Source of the DNA: Chitinophaga pinensis
GTDB taxonomy: Bacteria > Bacteroidota > Bacteroidia > NS11-12g > UBA9320
Assembly: GCA_945889315.1 (NCBI GenBank)
Contig: CAMDBP010000001.1
Span: forward strand, 45,005 to 109,004
DNA length: 64,000 nt
Direction of reading: 5' to 3'
The notes beneath the pieces were generated by a model. It searched no databases. It was not told the DNA's origin and worked only from the letters and a program-made list of their open reading frames with translations. The position numbers and the translations under genes were made by a program. Numbering within the stretch: the stretch's first letter is position 1; each line of letters starts with the position of its first letter. Below, piece by piece: positions 143 through 44,181 of this stretch.

Positions 143-1147
143 CTAAAGCCCAAGTAAGGGAATCTCCCTTGGTTTTTCGCTTTGAACACGATCAATAATC
201 GCCTTGAGGTGTTCTGGGGTTGTTCCGCAGCATCCTCCAACTATATTTAAAAATCCGCTGCTCGCAAATTCTCCTACCACCTTACTCATACTTTCTGGTG
301 TTTCATCGTATTCGCCAAATTCATTTGGTAAGCCTGCATTAGGATGTGCGGATACTCTACACCATGCCTTATCACTCAATTCCTTGATAAATGGTCTCAT
401 TTGATCTGCACCCAAGGCGCAATTAAGACCAATACTTAGCGGTTTCGCATGACTAACACTATACCAAAACGCTTCCACAGTTTGACCGCTTAAGGTTCTT
501 CCGCTCGCGTCTGTTATTGTACCACTAATCATAATGGGTGTATCTAAACCCATTTCTTCTTTAACTTCTAGTATGGCGAAGATGGCTGCTTTACAGTTTA
601 GGGTGTCAAAGACCGTTTCAATTAAAAAAATATCTACGCCACCTTTTGCCAATGCGATGGTTTGCTGTCTATAGGTAGCAACTAAATCGTCGAAACTGAC
701 TGCTCTATAGCCCGGATTATTGACATCAGGAGATAGACTTGCGGTCTTATTAGTTGGTCCAATGCTTCCCGCTACGAAACGTGGCTTGTCTGGATTTTTA
801 GCGGTATACGTATCAGCTGCATTTCTAGCTAGTTTCGCAGAAGTTACATTTAACTCATCAACTAAAAATTCCATGTGATAATCGGCCATAGAAACCGCTG
901 TACTATTGAAACTATTTGTTTCAATAATATCGGCTCCAGCTTCTAAGAACTGATTATGAATTTCTGTAATGATATGAGGCTGAGTTATGGATAGCAAGTC
1001 ATTATTCCCTTTGAGATTATGTTGATAATCCGCAAATCGTTGCCCACGATATTGTTCTTCGGAGAGTTTGTGTTTTTGGATCATAGTACCCATTGCACCA
1101 TCCAAAAAAAGAATTCTGTCTTGTAATAATCGCTCTATTTTATGCAT
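143..1147 (-). CDS. Homocysteine S-methyltransferase domain protein (N-terminal Hcy-binding module of a split cobalamin-dependent methionine synthase)
   Basis: 334 aa. '[13 protein letters not shown]' aligns with the MetH N-terminus (E. coli 'ILVLDGGMGTMIQ'). C-terminal '[11 protein letters not shown]' is the Zn-binding cysteine triad region of the Hcy-methyltransferase fold. The protein ends where full-length MetH continues into the pterin-binding module. Confidence 0.85.
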
Positions 1148-35066: not shown

Positions 35067-35145
35067 TTTGAAAATTAACATGAACCTCATTAAATTTACC
35101 AACTTTTTGGATTTTAAAAACAAGAATAACAAACCGTATAAACGT

Positions 35146-38100
35146 ATGAATAAATCATTCAATTCAGCTAGCCTTACCAGGTATTTAGCCTCATTTGTGT
35201 TACTGGTGACAAGCTTTCTGGCTTACTCACAGTGTAACCCTAAAGTCATGTACAATGGAAATTGGTCCTCAACAGGGGTGTTTTGTTTAGGAGAAATTAT
35301 AAGTTTCGATGCAAACTCTCCAGGTTACAACAGTACAACTGTTTGGGATTTTGGCGATGCTGGACCAGGTACAAGTACGTCAGAAAAACCATCTTACAGC
35401 TTCGCCCAAGCAGGAACGTACACTGTAAAATATACGGGTACAGGAGGTGCAGGAACATGCACAGGCAACGTGACGGTAATTGTAAGGCCTTCACCTGAAA
35501 TACACGTTCGCCAACTCACAAACGACACACAGTGTTACTCTGGCAACAGCTTTTGCTTTAGAGACTCAATTGTAGCGCCAGACGGTTCTATTGAGCGACT
35601 TGTAATGCTATTTAGTGACGGTACTAAAGTGGATACCACTTTTACTGGAGGCGCTGGTAAACTAAAAATATTTGACTTTTGTGTTACCATAAACGATCCT
35701 GCAGGGGGATTCTTTGACATGGTAATTGAAGCATATGACACCAGTGGATGTTTAACCAAATACACTTTTACTGATTATATCTATGTTCATCCAAAGTTAG
35801 GAATTAAGTTTGATAATATTACGCCTAAGCCCAACCCAGGTTGTGACTCCACGCTTGGGGTGTTTCTAAATACATCACTTATCGCATTAGCAGATATTGA
35901 TACCTTCATGTGGGATTTTGGGGATGGTAATATTCAAAGAGGTTCTTCTACAGTTAATACGCAATGGTGGTTTGGCATTGACGGGAAAGACACGATAAAA
36001 CATATGTATACTATCAATGGTACCTTTAACGGAACATTGTCTGTTTCTGCCTATGGATGTAGTGAGACCTTTACTTGGAAAAATGCAGTTACCAACTTTG
36101 TGGTAGATCCTAAAATTGTATCTACACCTAATCCTGCATGTGTCGCCGATAACCCCATCGAGTTTTCGGTAACCAATTTTAATACTGCAGGTATGTCTGC
36201 ATTCTTATGGAACTTTGGTGATCCTCCATCGGGACCTGCCAATTTTGATAAAGATAATTTTAGTCCGACAGCGCACGGCTACGGACCTGGACCATGGATG
36301 ATTAGTTTACGTATTCAGCAAGGCCCATGTGATGTAACTATTTATGATACTATTCAGGTTATAGGTCCAATCTCAACTATTGGTGTTCCCAATGACCAAG
36401 TTGCTTATAATCAAACCTATCAGTGTTTGATTACCGACTCTGTTCAAATGGTGAATAACTCCAGTTATTATCAAAATGATTACAATCAATTAGATGAGGA
36501 TTCTATCGTTTTTTATTTTGATTATAGTTTTGATTACAACTTTGACAACACCACTGGAATTACTAAATTTATTGTAAGGAAATGGAAAGAAGATAAAAAT
36601 GGCAATAAAATATTGTCGGCCGATACGTTCCCGAAAACAGATACACTATCTTTTATGGGCTACAAAGCTTATTTTGATACGGCCAAAGACTCTATTGCTG
36701 TAATAAATGGTAAAGATACCGTTTGGCAAAAATACTACTACAACGCCACTAGTTATAGAGGCGGCATTAACGGCCGTAAGCGTTGGGTTTTTAGATACGT
36801 TCCACCTCCTGGAGGAAAAGGAGTAGGAACTGGTAATCAAACTGCCATCGATCCCACTCTTAACGTTCGAGATTATAACCCTAATGTTTGGAGAGTATGG
36901 ACTATGGATGACAGATATGCTCCACAATGTACTACAGACAGTAGACCCTGGGTAAATAGAAATGTTGGCATTAATTGTAATTGGAGTATTGATAGTGTTC
37001 CTATACACTGGTATACCCCTTGGGATGAAGTTTACAGAACGCTTAATAATGGACAAAACTATAGAAGACCAAAAGTTGACAAACGCTTGTTCAAAGCAGA
37101 TACGATCTGTTATGAGGTGAATGTTTACTCTGATTCCTTCATGGTTGTACCTAGATTTATTTATATCAATGTTCCTGCAGATTCTGCATACACCTACTTC
37201 TTGCCGTATGACGGACTAAACCCAGCGGTGAATGGTTATAGAGACACCATCGTTTTGACAGCATCGTCACTTGGTCGAAAAATACACTATATGGATAGCT
37301 CTCACTTGAGTGTTTTTCAACAAGAAACGTATATCGTAATCAATAGACCTCCAAGTAGATTTATCGGAACTGAGTTTTACTATGATGCTGCTGTAGATTC
37401 TTTTTATGCAGTAAATAATTTAACCGATACCACCGTACTTGCTGCCGATCCATTAGGACGATGGAACAAAACTGCTGGCAACGGAACTACCAGATGGTCT
37501 ACCACCACTAGCGAAATGAGTTTCTACGTTCCGGATGGTGTAACCATCACCACTATAAATCTTCCAGCACCGGGTGGTGGAGGTGGAGTGCCTACTCCAG
37601 GCCCTTCGTACACCGGACCTAAGACCATTATTTTACCTGCAAATACGCAATTTACATTGCAATCTAAAGATTCATTGTTTAGTTTAAAGCACATACAAAC
37701 CGTGGCTAGAACCACCACAAATGCGCTTCCATCTTCATATCCATACAAAGATATGTTTGGTAAAACTAGATTTGGTTCAGCCATTTTTGTGGATTCTGCA
37801 TTACATAGAGAAGATTGGTTTGATAATAATGCTGTTTGTTTCAATGTAATATTGTGGCAAAAAGACACTATTCATCCGTTACTTTGTGAGTCTCAAGCAA
37901 CTAAATCATTAGCACTTGTTCCGCCTAATGCAAAAGGATTAGAGTGGGCAGATGGCACCCCATGTCCATTTACGGGTAACTTCCAATACATATTAGGATT
38001 TGATATGGCAGATACTAAACCAGGTTGTACACAATCGTGGTTTGCCGTAAACTACGATACCTTCCAATTGCCAACCAATCAGACAGGTTCTTGGGCCGTG

Positions 38101-41100
38101 TATAACGGTGGGGGTGTATTAGCACCAAGTAGACCAGGAAGTGCACTTCCATTCCAATTACCGTATAGCATAGTAGGAAATACCGGGACACAATTCTTAA
38201 AAGGATATACTCCTGGACAAATTGGTACAGGACAACGTTCACCTGCAGGATCATTTACCGTTGGTTTAATTGTAGGAAATGGTGTACCTCAAGCAAATGG
38301 ATTGCCTGCTTGCTTAGATACCGCTTACTATCCTGATATGTTCAGAATTCTATATATGAATCCTGCATTTACTCTATTAAACAGCTCACCACACATGTGT
38401 GCCGGCGCAACTGCTTATTTCCAACTAGAAGATCCTATACAAGATAGTATTACAGCACTTAGATGGAACTGGGGTTACCCAGGTAATGTTGGCCGTGGAC
38501 CTCAACAAGGTGGTTATTCTGAAGAGTTTTATTACTACAAAGAATACAACGGACCACAAGCTAATAGAAATGACGCTGGTATCGCTTATAATGGTGAAAA
38601 ATGGTTGTATAATTTTATCGTTAGATATAATATAGATGACCTTTCGGGTACTAAACTGATCGATACTATTGTGGTAAACATTATCAAGAAATGGGAAGTA
38701 GTCGCTTCTAAAAAGCAAGTTAGTAAGGAAGTAATAGACCTTTTCCTTCGTGAAAACTTAATTTATCAAGACATCCCAGCGGAAGACATTCCATTTTACT
38801 TAGGTGATGGTTCTAACAATTGTGTTGATACTACTAGTTTTGGCTCATTCTTCCAATTTGGAATTAAAGCATACCATCAAAAATCTGATCCAGATGTATG
38901 GCAAGTTGGTAACAAACGTTACTTATGTAACACTTATAACCCAGCTATAGTATCTGACACCACATTCTTCCTGAATGGCTCTGGCAATAGAGTTCCTTCA
39001 TTACAATATCCAAGTATAGATTCATTTACAATTGTTCAAAACGTAACAAATCGTAACAAGGCTAATTGTACCAGTTCTGTTGAAGTTACTCAAATTCTTC
39101 ACTTCAGAGATTCTTCTCTTAAAGGGTATGATACGTATGAAAGAGATTACGATAATGACGGGGTGATAGATGAAGTAATTACCGGCGTATATAAACATAC
39201 TTACAGATATCCTGTGGTGCGAGCAATTGATCCGTGTGATCCTTCGGTAAAAGATACCATTTGGGTTGCCGCAAATGCACCTATGACACCTAACTTTAGA
39301 TTAAACAACACCACGGGTTGTGGTGGATTTGGTGCAATATCTATGAATGTTGGATTCTACAATGACTTCTGGATGGATTCAACGGCTATTTGCCAAGGAT
39401 TGACATTATTTGTTGAAGATTCTATTAGATACTACCAATTAGGTGAGCAGGATCCTCCTACTTACCCAATTCACGATTTTGCACTATGGCAAGATCCTGC
39501 TAGATTTATTCCTAACATTGAAACCGTTTATTATGATTGGGACAGTACCGACGGTGTGTGGGATAATTACCAGTCTATTGTACCGAATCATTTCTACCCA
39601 GACCCAGGAAAATATACCATTACGATCATACCTAAAGATAGTACCGGCTGTAGAGATACCTCGTATATTGATGTAACCATTTCTAAAGTAAACCCTGTTA
39701 TTTCATTTGCCACATCAATCGTTAATTGTGCTTCGATAGTTGATTTCAAAGATTCTACCTGGTTTGTAGATCCTTGCGACACATTATGTCCAAATGGAAA
39801 CAACGTATCGTGTGAAAAATTACTTACCTGGAATTGGGATTTCGGAGACGGCACGCGAAACAGTAAACTTCAAAATCCTTCGCATAACTTTACTTCGAGT
39901 GGTAGCTATGACATTACACTCACGGTTACGTCTAAGCTAGGTTGTGAAGAAACTATTATCCGAACAATCTATATACCTGGTCCACAGCCTGATTTTGAAT
40001 TTGACTTAGATGAGTTTAATTTAAACGATACAGCTACTATATGCGTTGGCGATTCGCTGCTACTCGTGAACTTAAGCAAAGGAGACATTTCTGCACCTAA
40101 GTTTATAATGGACTGGGGAGATAAGACCTTTTCTCAACCAACTAATACAACGGGTAAATACGGACACACGTATACTACTGCTGGAACATACTTATTATTC
40201 TTAACACAAGAAGACGTAATACCCGGTACTAGCAATCGTTGTCAAAGAATGTTCCCGGATACCAATCCTGATATTCAAAATCAGCGACGTATAGTTGTGA
40301 TTGTAAAACCATTGCCAGAAGTAAATATTACAGCATCAAAAGACACTGTTTGTTTAGGCGAAGAAATCACCTTTAGTGGAACACTTGATCCAAGATACAC
40401 CCGAGTTAAATGGGATATGGCTAAGTTAGACACTATAAACGGAATTGTTCCTCAGGATACAGTAGTTAAATATATCTTTAAACAGCCTGGAACATTCACC
40501 GTAGTGCTAAGACCAGAGTATGATTTAAAACCTCGTTGTTGGGCAACCGATTCAATCGATGTATTTGTACAATCTGTAACTGCAGCATTTGATATTGTTC
40601 CTGACGGAGCACCTAACTTCTGCTTTACAAATACTTCTACAACTAGTCCATCTGGCAATGTCTTGACCTATGAATGGACGTTTGAAGATGAGACTCCTCC
40701 AGGACCAGGAAGTAGCACGGATACAGATCCTTGTTACAATTGGAACGAGCACGTAGGTATTTATGAGATTTGTCTTATCGCTACGGATGCTTTAGGTTGT
40801 AAAGACACGGTATGCCAAGATATCGAAAATGTATTCCAAACAAAACTTGTTCCTTACAATGTGTTTACGCCAGATGGTAAAGGTCTAAACGAAACATTTG
40901 TAATTGAAGGAGAAAGCTTACAGGAGTATCATATCAAAATCTACAATCGTTGGGGAGAATTAGTATTTGAAACTGAAGATGTGAAAAATTCTTGGAATGG
41001 TAAAGTTAAGAATAGTGGTAACGATTGTCCAGAAGGCACATACTTCTACGTAATTAAATACATGTTTGAATTTGACGACAAGTCGGAAACAATCGAAGGA

Positions 41101-41121
41101 ACCGTTGACATTATCCGATAA
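35146..41121 (+). CDS. Giant (about 1990-2017 aa) PKD-repeat cell-surface protein with a T9SS type-B sorting domain (SprB-like adhesin class)
   Basis: Signal peptide MNKSFNSASLTRYLASFVLLVTSFLAYSQ; the track start 35068 adds 26 aa before it. Many PKD-type 'WDFGDG/WNFGD' motifs. Gly/Pro linker 'PAPGGGGGVPTPGPS'. C-terminus 'YNVFTPDGKGLNETFVIEG...IKIYNRWGELVFE...WNGKVKNSGNDCPEGTYFYVIKY' is the type-B CTD. Confidence 0.85.
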   Translation: MNKSFNSASLTRYLASFVLLVTSFLAYSQCNPKVMYNGNWSSTGVFCLGEIISFDANSPGYNSTTVWDFGDAGPGTSTSEKPSYSFAQAGTYTVKYTGTGGAGTCTGNVTVIVRPSPEIHVRQLTNDTQCYSGNSFCFRDSIVAPDGSIERLVMLFSDGTKVDTTFTGGAGKLKIFDFCVTINDPAGGFFDMVIEAYDTSGCLTKYTFTDYIYVHPKLGIKFDNITPKPNPGCDSTLGVFLNTSLIALADIDTFMWDFGDGNIQRGSSTVNTQWWFGIDGKDTIKHMYTINGTFNGTLSVSAYGCSETFTWKNAVTNFVVDPKIVSTPNPACVADNPIEFSVTNFNTAGMSAFLWNFGDPPSGPANFDKDNFSPTAHGYGPGPWMISLRIQQGPCDVTIYDTIQVIGPISTIGVPNDQVAYNQTYQCLITDSVQMVNNSSYYQNDYNQLDEDSIVFYFDYSFDYNFDNTTGITKFIVRKWKEDKNGNKILSADTFPKTDTLSFMGYKAYFDTAKDSIAVINGKDTVWQKYYYNATSYRGGINGRKRWVFRYVPPPGGKGVGTGNQTAIDPTLNVRDYNPNVWRVWTMDDRYAPQCTTDSRPWVNRNVGINCNWSIDSVPIHWYTPWDEVYRTLNNGQNYRRPKVDKRLFKADTICYEVNVYSDSFMVVPRFIYINVPADSAYTYFLPYDGLNPAVNGYRDTIVLTASSLGRKIHYMDSSHLSVFQQETYIVINRPPSRFIGTEFYYDAAVDSFYAVNNLTDTTVLAADPLGRWNKTAGNGTTRWSTTTSEMSFYVPDGVTITTINLPAPGGGGGVPTPGPSYTGPKTIILPANTQFTLQSKDSLFSLKHIQTVARTTTNALPSSYPYKDMFGKTRFGSAIFVDSALHREDWFDNNAVCFNVILWQKDTIHPLLCESQATKSLALVPPNAKGLEWADGTPCPFTGNFQYILGFDMADTKPGCTQSWFAVNYDTFQLPTNQTGSWAVYNGGGVLAPSRPGSALPFQLPYSIVGNTGTQFLKGYTPGQIGTGQRSPAGSFTVGLIVGNGVPQANGLPACLDTAYYPDMFRILYMNPAFTLLNSSPHMCAGATAYFQLEDPIQDSITALRWNWGYPGNVGRGPQQGGYSEEFYYYKEYNGPQANRNDAGIAYNGEKWLYNFIVRYNIDDLSGTKLIDTIVVNIIKKWEVVASKKQVSKEVIDLFLRENLIYQDIPAEDIPFYLGDGSNNCVDTTSFGSFFQFGIKAYHQKSDPDVWQVGNKRYLCNTYNPAIVSDTTFFLNGSGNRVPSLQYPSIDSFTIVQNVTNRNKANCTSSVEVTQILHFRDSSLKGYDTYERDYDNDGVIDEVITGVYKHTYRYPVVRAIDPCDPSVKDTIWVAANAPMTPNFRLNNTTGCGGFGAISMNVGFYNDFWMDSTAICQGLTLFVEDSIRYYQLGEQDPPTYPIHDFALWQDPARFIPNIETVYYDWDSTDGVWDNYQSIVPNHFYPDPGKYTITIIPKDSTGCRDTSYIDVTISKVNPVISFATSIVNCASIVDFKDSTWFVDPCDTLCPNGNNVSCEKLLTWNWDFGDGTRNSKLQNPSHNFTSSGSYDITLTVTSKLGCEETIIRTIYIPGPQPDFEFDLDEFNLNDTATICVGDSLLLVNLSKGDISAPKFIMDWGDKTFSQPTNTTGKYGHTYTTAGTYLLFLTQEDVIPGTSNRCQRMFPDTNPDIQNQRRIVVIVKPLPEVNITASKDTVCLGEEITFSGTLDPRYTRVKWDMAKLDTINGIVPQDTVVKYIFKQPGTFTVVLRPEYDLKPRCWATDSIDVFVQSVTAAFDIVPDGAPNFCFTNTSTTSPSGNVLTYEWTFEDETPPGPGSSTDTDPCYNWNEHVGIYEICLIATDALGCKDTVCQDIENVFQTKLVPYNVFTPDGKGLNETFVIEGESLQEYHIKIYNRWGELVFETEDVKNSWNGKVKNSGNDCPEGTYFYVIKYMFEFDDKSETIEGTVDIIR

Positions 41122-41151
41122 GATAAGCTAAAACAAAACTTAGCATACCAT

Positions 41152-41188
41152 AAACTGCCTTGACGAATAACGTCAAGGCAGTTTTTTT
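41152..41188 (+). terminator. Rho-independent terminator after the giant adhesin gene
   Basis: AAACTGCCTTGACG-aataa-CGTCAAGGCAGTTTTTTTAT: 14-bp perfect stem plus T7. Confidence 0.85.
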
Positions 41189-41210
41189 ATGTTCAAAAAA
41201 TAATAACTTT

Positions 41211-41340
41211 GCGTCGCTTATAAAGAAAGACTGAGGGATTAGGCCCGGAGAAGTCTTAGCAACCTGAAAGCCATACTTTTTGCTATTCAAGGTGCTACAT
41301 CCTATCAAGACGTACAAATCTTGAGCAGATAAGCTTCTCA
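41211..41340 (+). promoter_or_regulatory. SAM-I (S-box) riboswitch in the leader of the metH C-terminal-half gene
   Basis: GCUUAUAAAGAAAGACUGAGGGAUUAGGCCCGGAGAAGUCUUAGCAACC...AAGGUGCUACAUCC...CAAGACGUACAAAUCUUGAGCAGAUAAGC. Compare the SAM-I consensus CUCUUAUCAAGAGAGGUGGAGGGACUGGCCCGAUGAAACCCGGCAACC...GGUGCCAAUUCC...AGAUGAG. P1 (GCUUAU/AUAAGC), P2 (AAGACU/AGUCUU), the GGUGC P3 motif and P4 (CAAGA/UCUUG) are all present. It lies 30 nt upstream of ATG 41369. Confidence 0.85.
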
Positions 41341-41368
41341 ACTCTCCTAACTCTTCAGCACAAAGTAA

Positions 41369-44023
41369 ATGGGAAAATCAATACATAATTATTTGCGCTT
41401 GAGCGGTTTAGAGCCGATGGTTCAAACTCCAAATATTAATTTTATTAATATTGGAGAGCGCACAAATGTTACAGGTTCTAAGGCTTTTGCGAATCTTATC
41501 CTCAATAATAAATATGACGAAGCACTCTCTGTAGCTCGATCTCAAGTAGAAAATGGTGCACAGGTCATAGATGTGAATATGGACGAAGGAATGCTGGATG
41601 GCAAAGCCGCTATGGTTAAATTTCTAAACTTAATAGCCGCTGAACCAGACATTAGTCGAGTACCTGTGATGATTGACTCTAGCAAGTGGGATATTATTGA
41701 GGCCGGACTTAAAGTTATCCAAGGCAAAGGAATTGTAAATTCTATCAGCCTAAAAGATGGAGAAGAGGCATTTATTGCCAGAGCCGAAAAAATAAAACGC
41801 TATGGGGCTGCCACAGTTGTGATGGCATTTGACGAAAATGGCCAAGCAGATTCATACGAAAAACGAATTGCTATCTGTGAAAGATGCTATCACATACTCA
41901 CTCAGAAAGTAAACTTCCCTCCATCCGACATCATTTTTGACCCTAACATTTTAACTGTCGCTACAGGTATTGAAGAACATAATAATTATGCGGTTGACTT
42001 TATAAAAGCAACCAAATGGATTAAAGAAAATTTGCCATATGCTAAAGTAAGTGGCGGGGTAAGCAATATATCATTCAGTTTTAGGGGGAATAACATCGTG
42101 CGGGAAGCAATGCACTCTGCCTTCTTATATCATGCTATTCAAGCGGGATTAGACATGGGTATCGTGAATGCTGGGATGATAGAAGTTTATGAAGAGATCC
42201 CAAAAGAACTATTAATAAGGGTAGAAGATGTTTTGCTTAATCGCAGAGATGACGCCACTGAACGATTAGTAGATTTTGCCGAGACAGTAAAAGGTGATGG
42301 CAAAAAGATAGTACTTGACTTAAGCTGGAGAGATCAAAGTGTTGAAGAACGACTTAAACACTCCCTTATAAAAGGTATTACAGATTACATAGATGAAGAT
42401 ACGGAAGAAGCACGTCTAAACTATGCTAAACCCTTACACGTCATTGAAGGACCGCTAATGGCCGGCATGAACGTAGTAGGCGACTTATTTGGTGCGGGCA
42501 AAATGTTCTTACCACAGGTAGTGAAAAGTGCCCGTGTGATGAAAAAATCCGTAGCGTATCTAAATCCTTACCTTGAAGCAGACAAAAGTGAAGGCGATAC
42601 GCAAGGTAAAATACTAATGGCCACCGTTAAGGGAGACGTTCATGACATTGGAAAAAACATTGTAGGTGTTGTATTGGCTTGCAACAATTATGAAATAATT
42701 GACTTAGGCGTTATGGTTCCCGCAAATAAGATCTTGGATGAAGCTATAAAGCATAATGTAGACGTGATTGGGCTCAGTGGACTCATCACTCCCAGCTTAG
42801 ACGAGATGGTAGACGTAGCCGCTGAAATGGAACGTAGAGGCATGAAATTACCTTTACTTATTGGCGGAGCAACTACGAGCAGAGTACATACTGCTGTAAA
42901 GGTGGCACCTCATTATAGCGGACCGGTGGTACACGTGCTGGATGCATCGCGGTCTGTTCCTGTAGCAGGTAAACTTATCGGGCAAAGTACCCGAGAATTA
43001 TTTCAAGCTGAGATAAAAGCAGAGTATACTGAGTTAGCTATACAGCATGCTGCTCGTCAAGCGGATAAAGTAATTTTACCATGGGGCGAAGCCAATGCTA
43101 ATAAGTTAAAATTAGATTGGGATACCTTTACTCCTGTACCCCCGCCACAACTTGGAATAACTGTTTTTGATGACGTTGATTTAAATGAAATTAGGGGCTT
43201 TATAGATTGGACGCCATTCTTCTCGACTTGGGAATTACGCGGGAAATATCCTAACATTTTCCAAGATGAATATGTGGGTGATGAAGCTAAGAAACTTTTT
43301 GCGGATGCAGTGGTCATGTTAGATGACATAATAACTCACAAAAAACTTCAAGCAAAGGCTGTATTAGGCGTATTCGAAGCAAATGAAGAAAATGGCGATG
43401 TACTGCTTACAAATGGGACTAAATTTAATTTCCTAAGACAGCAACGCAAAATGGGAAATGACATTCCTAACATCTCACTTGCCGACTATATAGCACCCAA
43501 AAACAGTGGCAAAAAAGATTACCTCGGAGCCTTTGCGGTAACCGCAGGCATTGGCATAGAGTCACTTATTGACGCATTTGAAGCAGACCATGATGATTAC
43601 AACTCCATAATGGTGAAGGCAATTGCCGATAGGCTCGCAGAAGCAATGGCTGAATTCATGCATCAAAAAATGCGAAAAGAAATTTGGGGCTACGCTGCAG
43701 AAGAAACACTAACCAACGAAGAGCTCATATACGAAAAATACCAAGGTATTCGTCCCGCAGCTGGTTATCCCGCAAGTCCGGATCATACCGAAAAAGAAAC
43801 GTTATGGAAACTGTTAGATGTGGAGAATAAAACAGGAATCAGCCTTACTGAAAGCTATGCAATGTACCCTACAGCTTCAGTTTCTGGATTATATTTTGCT
43901 CATCCAGAAGCTAAATACTTTGCCGTAGGCAAGATAGATACAACTCAAGTAGCAGATTATGCAGAACGAAAAGGTGCTGATTTCAATGCTACCAAAAAAT
44001 GGCTCGGTCCTAATTTATTTTAG
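41369..44023 (+). CDS. metH: Methionine synthase, B12-dependent: pterin-binding, cobalamin-binding and AdoMet-reactivation modules (C-terminal ~3/4 of MetH; Hcy module encoded separately)
   Basis: 884 aa. Begins at the MetH linker ('LRLSGLEP'). Pterin-binding barrel. B12-binding '[25 protein letters not shown]' (DxHxxG...S...GG). C-terminal activation domain '[12 protein letters not shown]...'. Confidence 0.9.
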
Positions 44024-44181
44024 AACTAGAACTTTACTACCGCACTCTATTTTGTCTGCACTTACATACTATTATGTTGCTGCAGGTATACATATGATAG
44101 ACTGGTCTGTTTAACACGATTTTTTATCTTATTATTTTAGTTTAGAAACACTTATACATACATCTTTGTAGACTTAATTAG

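Follow-up and report, generated by a model that had tools for sequence, protein, structure and literature searches.

A SAM-I aptamer in the leader of a split methionine synthase gene

The 64-kb window analysed here (the whole stretch of 64,000 nucleotides of contig CAMDBP010000001.1) belongs to a clade of uncultured marine Bacteroidia whose proteins for the large subunit of a split methionine synthase (MetH) are 86-99% identical in Tara and other marine metagenomes. In the sense-strand 5′ leader of the gene for this subunit, 34 nucleotides (nt) 5′ of it, lies an aptamer of the SAM-I class of riboswitches (SAM, S-adenosylmethionine). The whole window was scanned with cmscan against Rfam 15 at gathering thresholds, and the only match obtained was to RF00162 (SAM-I, S-box leader), at 41215-41335 on the forward (+) strand, with a score of 70.6 bits (gathering cutoff 44.4) and an E value of 1.7e-14, well outside what chance would give. 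The alignment spans model positions 1-108 of 108 and is untruncated. A preliminary description of this locus, made by eye, had proposed a canonical SAM-I aptamer within 41211-41340; this interval encloses the aptamer, and all the elements it named lie where it had placed them.

The cmscan alignment, in window coordinates and on the + strand, places P1 at 41216-41221 / 41329-41334 (GCUUAU / AUAAGC), P2 at 41227-41231 / 41253-41257, P2a at 41235-41237 / 41244-41246, P3 at 41258-41268 / 41286-41296 and P4 at 41305-41310 / 41319-41324 (UCAAGA / UCUUGA). The kink-turn columns of the model are aligned by the GA-containing internal loop between P2 and P2a, a GA-rich loop formed by UGA (41232-34) and GGAGAA (41247-52). 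The conserved blocks are GAGGGA (41233-41238) and GGCCC (41242-41246), which cover P2a and the kink-turn, GCAACC (41259-41264), and GGUGCUA (41291-41297), then UCC (41300-41302). A possible 4-bp pseudoknot joins UAGG (41240-43) to CCUA (41301-04); it is paired in 100% of 18 clade leader types, yet it is invariant, and represents complementarity without covariation.

For the homologous leaders we fetched 80 loci with relatives of the downstream protein in species-representative genomes, to which were added 11 contigs with 86% and 96% identical proteins and 22 metagenome contigs from an exact-pattern scan for the aptamer core of the clade. A regular expression for the aptamer caught just 37 of 81 sources, and a covariance model was used instead. 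This model (R1), built on seven clade aptamers and a Rfam-derived structure, recovered 67 aptamers from 95 sources. In the resulting alignment of 66 distinct leaders, the four-helix fold was paired in 93.7% of its cells, compared to 34-45% when the 3′ partners were slid by 1-3 columns, and none of 500 column shuffles reached the observed values; the fit to the model biases this alignment towards the structure, yet the excess is very large. The compensatory pairing that the preliminary description had named as a check proved abundant: both-sided changes occur in 21 of the 33 pairs, and covarying pairs make up six of six in P4 and six of ten in P3. An alternative alignment of 15 aptamers with MAFFT and RNAalifold recovered P1, P2 and the base of P3, misaligned P4 and the distal part of P3, and was unused for the pair counts. 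The RF00162 score, the list of pairs and the covariation firmly support the element as a bona fide canonical SAM-I aptamer, a member of RF00162 by every feature tested, and SAM binding is predicted.

The gene that follows (41369-44023, +) encodes a product of 884 amino acids (aa) with Pfam matches to PF00809, PF02607, PF02310 and PF02965, all far above cut-off. These modules are Pterin_bind (for methyl-tetrahydrofolate; E 6e-63), B12-binding_2 (the cap), B12-binding and Met_synt_B12 (for AdoMet-dependent reactivation; E 2e-120), and S-methyl_trans, the homocysteine domain, was missing from the 884-aa product in the Pfam search. The preliminary description had called this target the cobalamin-binding/reactivation half of a split methionine synthase. 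It is part of a split MetH, although not a half: the large subunit carries three of the four MetH modules, and the N-terminal homocysteine-binding module alone is absent.

The transcription unit is well delimited on its 5′ side. The product of the upstream gene (35068-41121, +), 2017 aa long, contains several PKD domains and a CHU_C signal for type IX secretion, and the synteny of this gene with the riboswitch and metH is kept clade-wide. An intrinsic terminator with a 14-bp stem and a T-run (41152-41191, +; site 41152-41184 in the terminator scan) belongs to this gene and isolates the riboswitch transcription unit from read-through. An equivalent hairpin and T-run are present in most of 21 distinct clade upstream sequences, with clear exceptions, by eye, in loci L092 and L104. 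Between the terminator and P1, clade conservation reveals a Bacteroidota sigma-A -7 box, TAACTTTG (consensus TAnnTTTG; 41204-41211, +). The TAnnTTTG box is found in 21 of the 21 sequences; it lies 4 nt 5′ of P1 in 19 of them, and 1-2 nt farther upstream in L092 and L104. A -7 box occupies positions -12 to -5 relative to the transcription start site (PMC9723704); with the box of the window ending 4 nt 5′ of P1, the predicted start is ~41216, the nucleotide with which the pairing of P1 begins.

Homologues 96-99% and 86% identical, from marine metagenomes, show the same synteny, and the clade-wide order is the PKD/CHU_C gene with its terminator, the -7 box, the aptamer, a tail of 33-39 nt, the metH large gene and a GT4 glycosyltransferase gene. 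Note that the metH-GT4 spacer varies in the 86% lineage, where L081 and L084 (5156-5950) carry an extra gene for a 73-aa DUF2541 protein that is absent from this spacer in L082, L085 and the window (44024-44181).

Pairing of the leader tail with the aptamer

The gap between the aptamer and the ATG measures 33-34 nt (end of P1 at 41334/41335; ATG at 41369), close to the 30 nt or so that had been estimated. A scan of 40900-41700 for intrinsic terminators, a simple consensus scan only, gave a single site, the upstream one at 41152-41184, and nothing between the aptamer and the ATG, in agreement with the preliminary description, which had seen no terminator hairpin after the aptamer. Likewise, no G+C-rich hairpin followed by a U-run was found in the tails (33-39 nt) of the 18 clade leader types.

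The unconstrained minimum free energy (MFE) fold of the leader is not the aptamer: the tail is paired back into it, and P3 and P4 stay intact. Two anti-aptamer strands are seen in the MFE folds, both on the + strand. The first, AA1 (GCUUCUCA, 41333-41340), is made of the last two nt of P1 and the first nt of the tail, and its partner at 41247-41254 (GGAGAAGU) is the kink-turn 3′ strand with the first nt of the P2 3′ strand. The second, AA2 (CCUAACUCUUCAG, 41346-41358), pairs with 41231-41243 (CUGAGGGAUUAGG), a segment that runs from the end of the P2 5′ strand through the kink-turn and the 5′ strand of P2a into the pseudoknot loop. The competing strand targets P2, the kink-turn and the pseudoknot loop, and merely the outer two base pairs of P1.

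In an alignment of 18 distinct clade leaders (A2), the AA1 and AA2 helices were 88.1% paired, versus 41-55% when slid, and none of 500 shuffles equalled either the observed pairing or the covariation score. AA1 alone (columns 34-41 / 122-129) was 93.8% paired, with column pair 35/128 occurring as GC in eight leaders and as UA in six, and AA2 alone (columns 19-30 / 135-146) was 84.3% paired. Moreover, the three nt after CCC are the only freely variable aptamer positions in the region paired by the tail, and their variation is matched there: AGA, AUA, ACA or GGA in the aptamer faces UCU, UAU, UGU or UC(U/A) in the tail, the middle position being G-C, U-A or C-G. In the window itself the aptamer-tail duplex is predicted at -22.6 kcal/mol, compared to -15.6 +/- 2.5 in dinucleotide-preserving shuffles of the tail, of which 16 in 2000 were as good. 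Because the pairing holds across the 18 leaders, the trinucleotide varies in step on both sides and the duplex energy beats that of the shuffles, the anti-aptamer pairing is supported as real and not a folding artefact, and it is mutually exclusive with the ligand-bound aptamer.

Other SAM-I leaders and the partner subunit of MetH

As occurs in the SAM-I riboswitches of the Firmicutes (Bacillus subtilis yitJ and metE, Thermoanaerobacter tengcongensis metF-metH2), the window element has a P1-P4 four-way junction, a kink-turn in P2, a pseudoknot between the P2 loop and J3-4, the common blocks AGA / GAGGGA / GCAACC / GGUGC / AGAUAAG, and a target in the methionine/SAM cycle. The characterised Firmicute leaders, however, end in an antiterminator/terminator pair, whereas the window leader has no terminator, and their competing strand attacks mainly the 3′ strand of P1, whereas that of the window takes P2, the kink-turn and the pseudoknot loop. 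According to the authors of work on the met operon of Xanthomonas campestris, all previously characterised SAM-I riboswitches use terminators (PMC7270179). Their own element, SAM-I(Xcc), is also terminator-less and acts mainly on translation, and it is the nearest experimentally characterised analogue of the window leader; it uses sequestration by a Shine-Dalgarno (SD)/anti-SD pair and senses uncharged initiator tRNA (PMC7270179), whereas the window leader has no SD-like motif and gave no sign of a second ligand, although none was looked for. Barrick and Breaker noted that Bacteroidetes are among the bacteria with SAM-I, and that outside the Firmicutes riboswitches act predominantly by translation attenuation (PMC2258182). 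In the literature searched we found no riboswitch in the SD-less Bacteroidota with its output mechanism worked out, a query for SAM riboswitches in Flavobacteria/Bacteroidota being swamped by unrelated matches.

Outside the clade, the comparison covered 48 Bacteroidota leaders of at least 44 bits from loci L002-L080 (Pedobacter, Spirosoma, Roseivirga, Cyclobacteriaceae and others). The split-metH leaders of these loci have a homologous aptamer (29.9-93 bits with model R1) and serve the same pathway, and, like the window leader, they mostly lack a terminator and have a 3′ tail whose sequence complements a portion of the aptamer. In 47 of the 48 the riboswitch precedes the gene for the homocysteine (Hcy) domain, with the large gene immediately after; the exception is Fulvivirga marina (L011), where the aptamer stands directly before the large gene. 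In the window clade, by contrast, the two metH genes are 40 kb apart and the riboswitch lies before the large gene. The switching strand also differs: outside the clade, CUUUCU..AUAAGC is, by eye, complementary to the P1 5′ strand, J1-2 and the P2 5′ strand. Since the clade tail pairs with a different part of the aptamer, the expression platform appears, from these comparisons, to have been rebuilt as the riboswitch took up its position in front of the large gene.

A terminator was detected by the scan in two of the 48 leaders outside the clade (L011, at 2905-2990, and L026), and one more was recognised by eye in L046. Transcriptional and terminator-less SAM-I platforms coexist among the metH leaders of Bacteroidota. 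Six leaders of the Pedobacter/Mucilaginibacter type (L015, L016, L025, L031, L032 and L040; ~1850-2010) have 118-155 nt between the aptamer and the Hcy gene, with repeated inverted-repeat blocks of the GAGAU / AUCUC type. The opening energy of their translation initiation region hardly shifts when P1 is enforced, and their output may differ from that of the short-leader Cytophagales type. In L009 (716-922) Rfam aligns a 207-nt SAM-I aptamer with an insertion of ~100 nt, of which the clade model matched the first 84 nt only; directly downstream of this expanded aptamer, neither an Hcy start nor a large metH start was recognised.

The homocysteine-binding subunit of the window (143-1147, - strand; 334 aa) was found by motif search and Pfam (S-methyl_trans, PF02574, E 3.8e-98), 40 kb from the metH large gene. 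Since it shows 59-62% full-length identity to the Hcy subunits that, in relatives, follow the riboswitch next to the large gene, its sequence marks it as the orthologous partner subunit of the split MetH, and its assembly with the large subunit is predicted. Contigs carrying the Hcy subunit were looked up, and they gave same-species contexts only, with no added divergence. MetH split in two or three parts has been documented by Price et al. in GapMind (PMC7857596). As in those cases, the homocysteine-binding module is here a separate polypeptide, and the domain split itself is nothing unusual; what sets this system apart from split MetH in general is that the subunit genes are unlinked and that just one of them has riboswitch control.

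Upstream of the Hcy gene no Rfam match reached the gathering score, and there is no riboswitch. A second riboswitch at this place was considered and rejected, the matches to Hrs12, SorX and rpsL_ricks being sub-threshold and driven by a terminator hairpin. A sigma-A -7 box, TATCTTTG, lies at 1160-1153 (-) and ends 5 nt 5′ of the ATG; because such a box occupies -12 to -5 (PMC9723704), the Hcy-subunit mRNA is predicted to be essentially leaderless or to have a 1-nt leader. This leaves no room for cis-regulation of the Hcy subunit. Leaderless mRNAs are uncommon in Flavobacteria, amounting to 5.5% of the mRNAs in F. psychrophilum (PMC9723704).

Farther upstream of the Hcy gene, between it and a transketolase-like gene, there is a small-RNA candidate, a non-coding stretch of ~270 nt (1204-1478, -). 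Within it lie a separate TAnnTTTG box (TACCTTTG, 1478-1471) and a strong hairpin terminator (1232-1210) with a T-run; the stretch has no credible open reading frame, sub-threshold Rfam matches only and a fold z-score of -1.57.

Output of the switch and its significance

The translation initiation region of the metH large gene is A-rich (CACAAAGUAA AUG GGAAAAUC, 41359-41381, +), and no Shine-Dalgarno motif of the GGAG/AGGA type occurs in 41336-41368. This is in line with Bacteroidetes mRNAs, which lack the SD and in which start-region structure and upstream adenines tune initiation (PMC6847099). The output resembles a translational sequestor/anti-sequestor platform; having no SD to mask, it falls outside the classical SD-sequestering class.

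We think it rather likely that the element is a SAM-OFF switch on translation initiation, terminator-less and SD-less, and that it makes up the entire 5′ leader of a monocistronic-looking metH large-subunit mRNA. Under this model, transcription would start at ~41216, at the first nt of P1, and the aptamer would fold first. When SAM is low, the pyrimidine-rich tail (41333-41358) would invade the aptamer, AA1 pairing with 41247-41254 and AA2 with 41231-41243, and would thereby be kept off the A-rich start region, on which the 30S subunit could load. When SAM is high, P1, the kink-turn and the pseudoknot would be locked and the tail expelled. Its freed UC-rich segments could then base-pair with the purines of the start region (AUG-GGAAAA plus the earliest codons), which would raise the cost of opening the initiation site and lower the synthesis of the large subunit. 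Since MetH needs both subunits, throttling one of them would suffice to throttle the enzyme. Repression by SAM is the polarity expected of a SAM-I riboswitch before a methionine-synthesis gene, and it fits the phylum.

Translational control is favoured because there is no terminator, the anti-aptamer covaries, opening of the start region is predicted to cost more once the tail is free, and relatives have few terminators. The preliminary description had likewise leaned to translational over transcriptional control, and the missing terminator, the covarying anti-aptamer, the start-opening energies and the 2-3 terminators in 48 related leaders all fit that preference, the mechanism itself being our inference. 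Its more general remark that translational control is common in Bacteroidota is sound in the light of the paper cited above (PMC2258182) and of the same 2-3 in 48.

When the tail and start region of the 18 clade types were folded alone, the freed tail covered the start site in most lineages, although by different pairings: a hairpin UCCUA-A-UUUAU / AUAAA-UGGGA over the start codon in L001, L087 and L098, a hairpin UUUCCUA / UGGGAAA in L100 and L113, UUCUC / GGGAA in L096, L101 and L109, and UAUGCA / UGCAUA at -9 to -2 in L081, L082 and L099. In the window, there are two candidates for the OFF-state pairing: UCCUA (41345-49) with UGGGA (41370-74), and a long imperfect hairpin (41351-41371 / 41384-41403) of the tail with the start codon and early codons, which is predicted when the aptamer is enforced. 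A possible compensatory change, from C41353-G41401 in the window to U-A in L001, had hinted at this hairpin (41351-71 / 41384-403); the pairing is unused in other lineages and was not relied on. We then compared two explicit states, with the tail either engaged in AA1/AA2 or free, by the energy needed to open positions -9 to +12. In the window this energy rose from 2.5 kcal/mol with the tail engaged to 6.8 with the tail free (+4.3); the increase exceeded 0.5 kcal/mol in 15 of the 18 clade types (median +3.2). A simpler 'bound' model in which only P1 was enforced was judged poor, its 'free' ensemble being a mixture of both states, and the explicit comparison was used instead. With only P1 enforced, Cytophagales-type leaders gain +4 to +7 kcal/mol of opening energy.

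Several observations weigh against occlusion of the start region as the output. Shuffled tails with the same dinucleotide content gave 5.2 +/- 1.1 kcal/mol, compared to the 6.8 of the window, and 11% of them reached or exceeded the observed value; clade-wide, the median fraction of shuffles that occlude at least as strongly was 0.21. Because shuffled tails occlude almost as well, the modelled OFF-state effect seems to be largely compositional, a matter of a UC-rich tail and a purine-rich start and not of a demonstrably evolved hairpin. With P1 alone enforced, the clade shows an opening difference of only 0.5-1.2 kcal/mol, and the AUG is mostly paired in weak A-U hairpins in both predicted states. 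Moreover, the window has a degraded form of the start-codon hairpin seen in its closest relatives (96-97% protein identity), with UCCUA/UGGGA alone left. Finally, the anti-aptamer helix ends ~8-11 nt 5′ of the AUG, within the expected 30S footprint, and the ON state is not obviously unobstructed. Occlusion of the start by a SAM-released tail is thus weakly supported by the modelling.

The same aptamer and tail could act through another output, Rho-dependent termination of transcription, either by itself or together with poor translation. SAM would then expel a C-rich, almost G-free tail with YC dimers onto which Rho would load, terminating transcription in early metH, and without SAM this site would be hidden. 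Rho-dependent riboswitches exist, as exemplified by the Mg2+ riboswitch of mgtA and the flavin mononucleotide riboswitch of ribB. Among the 35 nt of the tail (CUUCUCAACUCUCCUAACUCUUCAGCAC) there are two G, UC and CC dimers are frequent, the tail is paired in one state and free in the other, and the predicted occlusion of the start site barely exceeds what composition gives; the authors of the Xanthomonas study likewise left Rho possible for their terminator-less SAM-I (PMC7270179). However, pairing with the purine-rich conserved aptamer segments GAGGGA and GAGAAG already explains the pyrimidine richness, the free stretch of ~25 nt is short for a rut site, and the sequence holds no Rho-specific feature; we consider a Rho-based output unlikely. 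An unrecognised non-canonical intrinsic terminator, or SAM-dependent mRNA decay, seems to us improbable. Terminators were sought here by consensus alone, and some bacteria do use terminators that lack canonical U-tails (Barrick and Breaker, PMC2258182), but textbook terminators, a hairpin with a T-run, stand just upstream in this genome and in its relatives, and a 34-nt tail fits no G+C-rich hairpin of any kind.

We give equally little credence, or slightly less, to the idea that SAM turns the switch ON, or that the leader is a non-regulatory relic from the breakup of a split-metH operon. With an ON polarity, the anti-aptamer helix, reaching to about -11, would block the 30S subunit at low SAM, and SAM binding would open the leader. 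The position of the AA2 end, 8-11 nt 5′ of the AUG and inside the ribosome footprint, would suit such a block, the bound state would offer ~34 nt of unstructured, pyrimidine-rich leader as a standby site, and a hairpin that sister lineages keep over the start codon has decayed in the window. Nevertheless, SAM-induced MetH has no obvious logic, and in the two-state model the start is less accessible with the tail free in 15 of the 18 types. To our knowledge, all SAM-I riboswitches characterised so far are OFF switches. Those relatives whose sequestor hairpins are clear have this polarity too, and in Xanthomonas the SAM-I that acts on translation brings about repression when it binds SAM (PMC7270179). 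Moreover, since the aptamer, the promoter box and the anti-aptamer are conserved, with covariation, down to 86% protein identity, the leader seems to be under selection rather than in decay.

The OFF switch on translation that we favour would leave our knowledge of SAM-I as a class unchanged: this riboswitch is ordinary in kind, and mildly unusual only in its terminator-less, SD-less output stage. For annotation, it is a real RNA element that open reading frame tracks miss and that any Rfam-based annotation would find, and the analysis links two distant genes, 143-1147 and 41369-44023, as predicted subunits of one enzyme of which one alone would be regulated by SAM. Three points go modestly beyond routine: an anti-aptamer, specific to the lineage and backed by covariation, on P2, the kink-turn and the pseudoknot loop; an output without an SD; and the one-sided control of two unlinked MetH subunits. 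Terminator-less SAM-I riboswitches have barely been studied by experiment, and the clade alignment yields a compact (~155 nt), covariation-supported two-state model that is directly testable. A wider scenario, which we offer tentatively and hold to be possible but doubtful, is that after the split-metH operon broke up the SAM-I element acquired a rebuilt, SD-independent platform, in which the tail invades the kink-turn, P2 and the pseudoknot loop and represses either by compositional pairing with the start or by exposure of a Rho site, the other subunit being left near-leaderless and unregulated. If true, this would be a tractable natural example of a riboswitch gating translation in a phylum without Shine-Dalgarno pairing.

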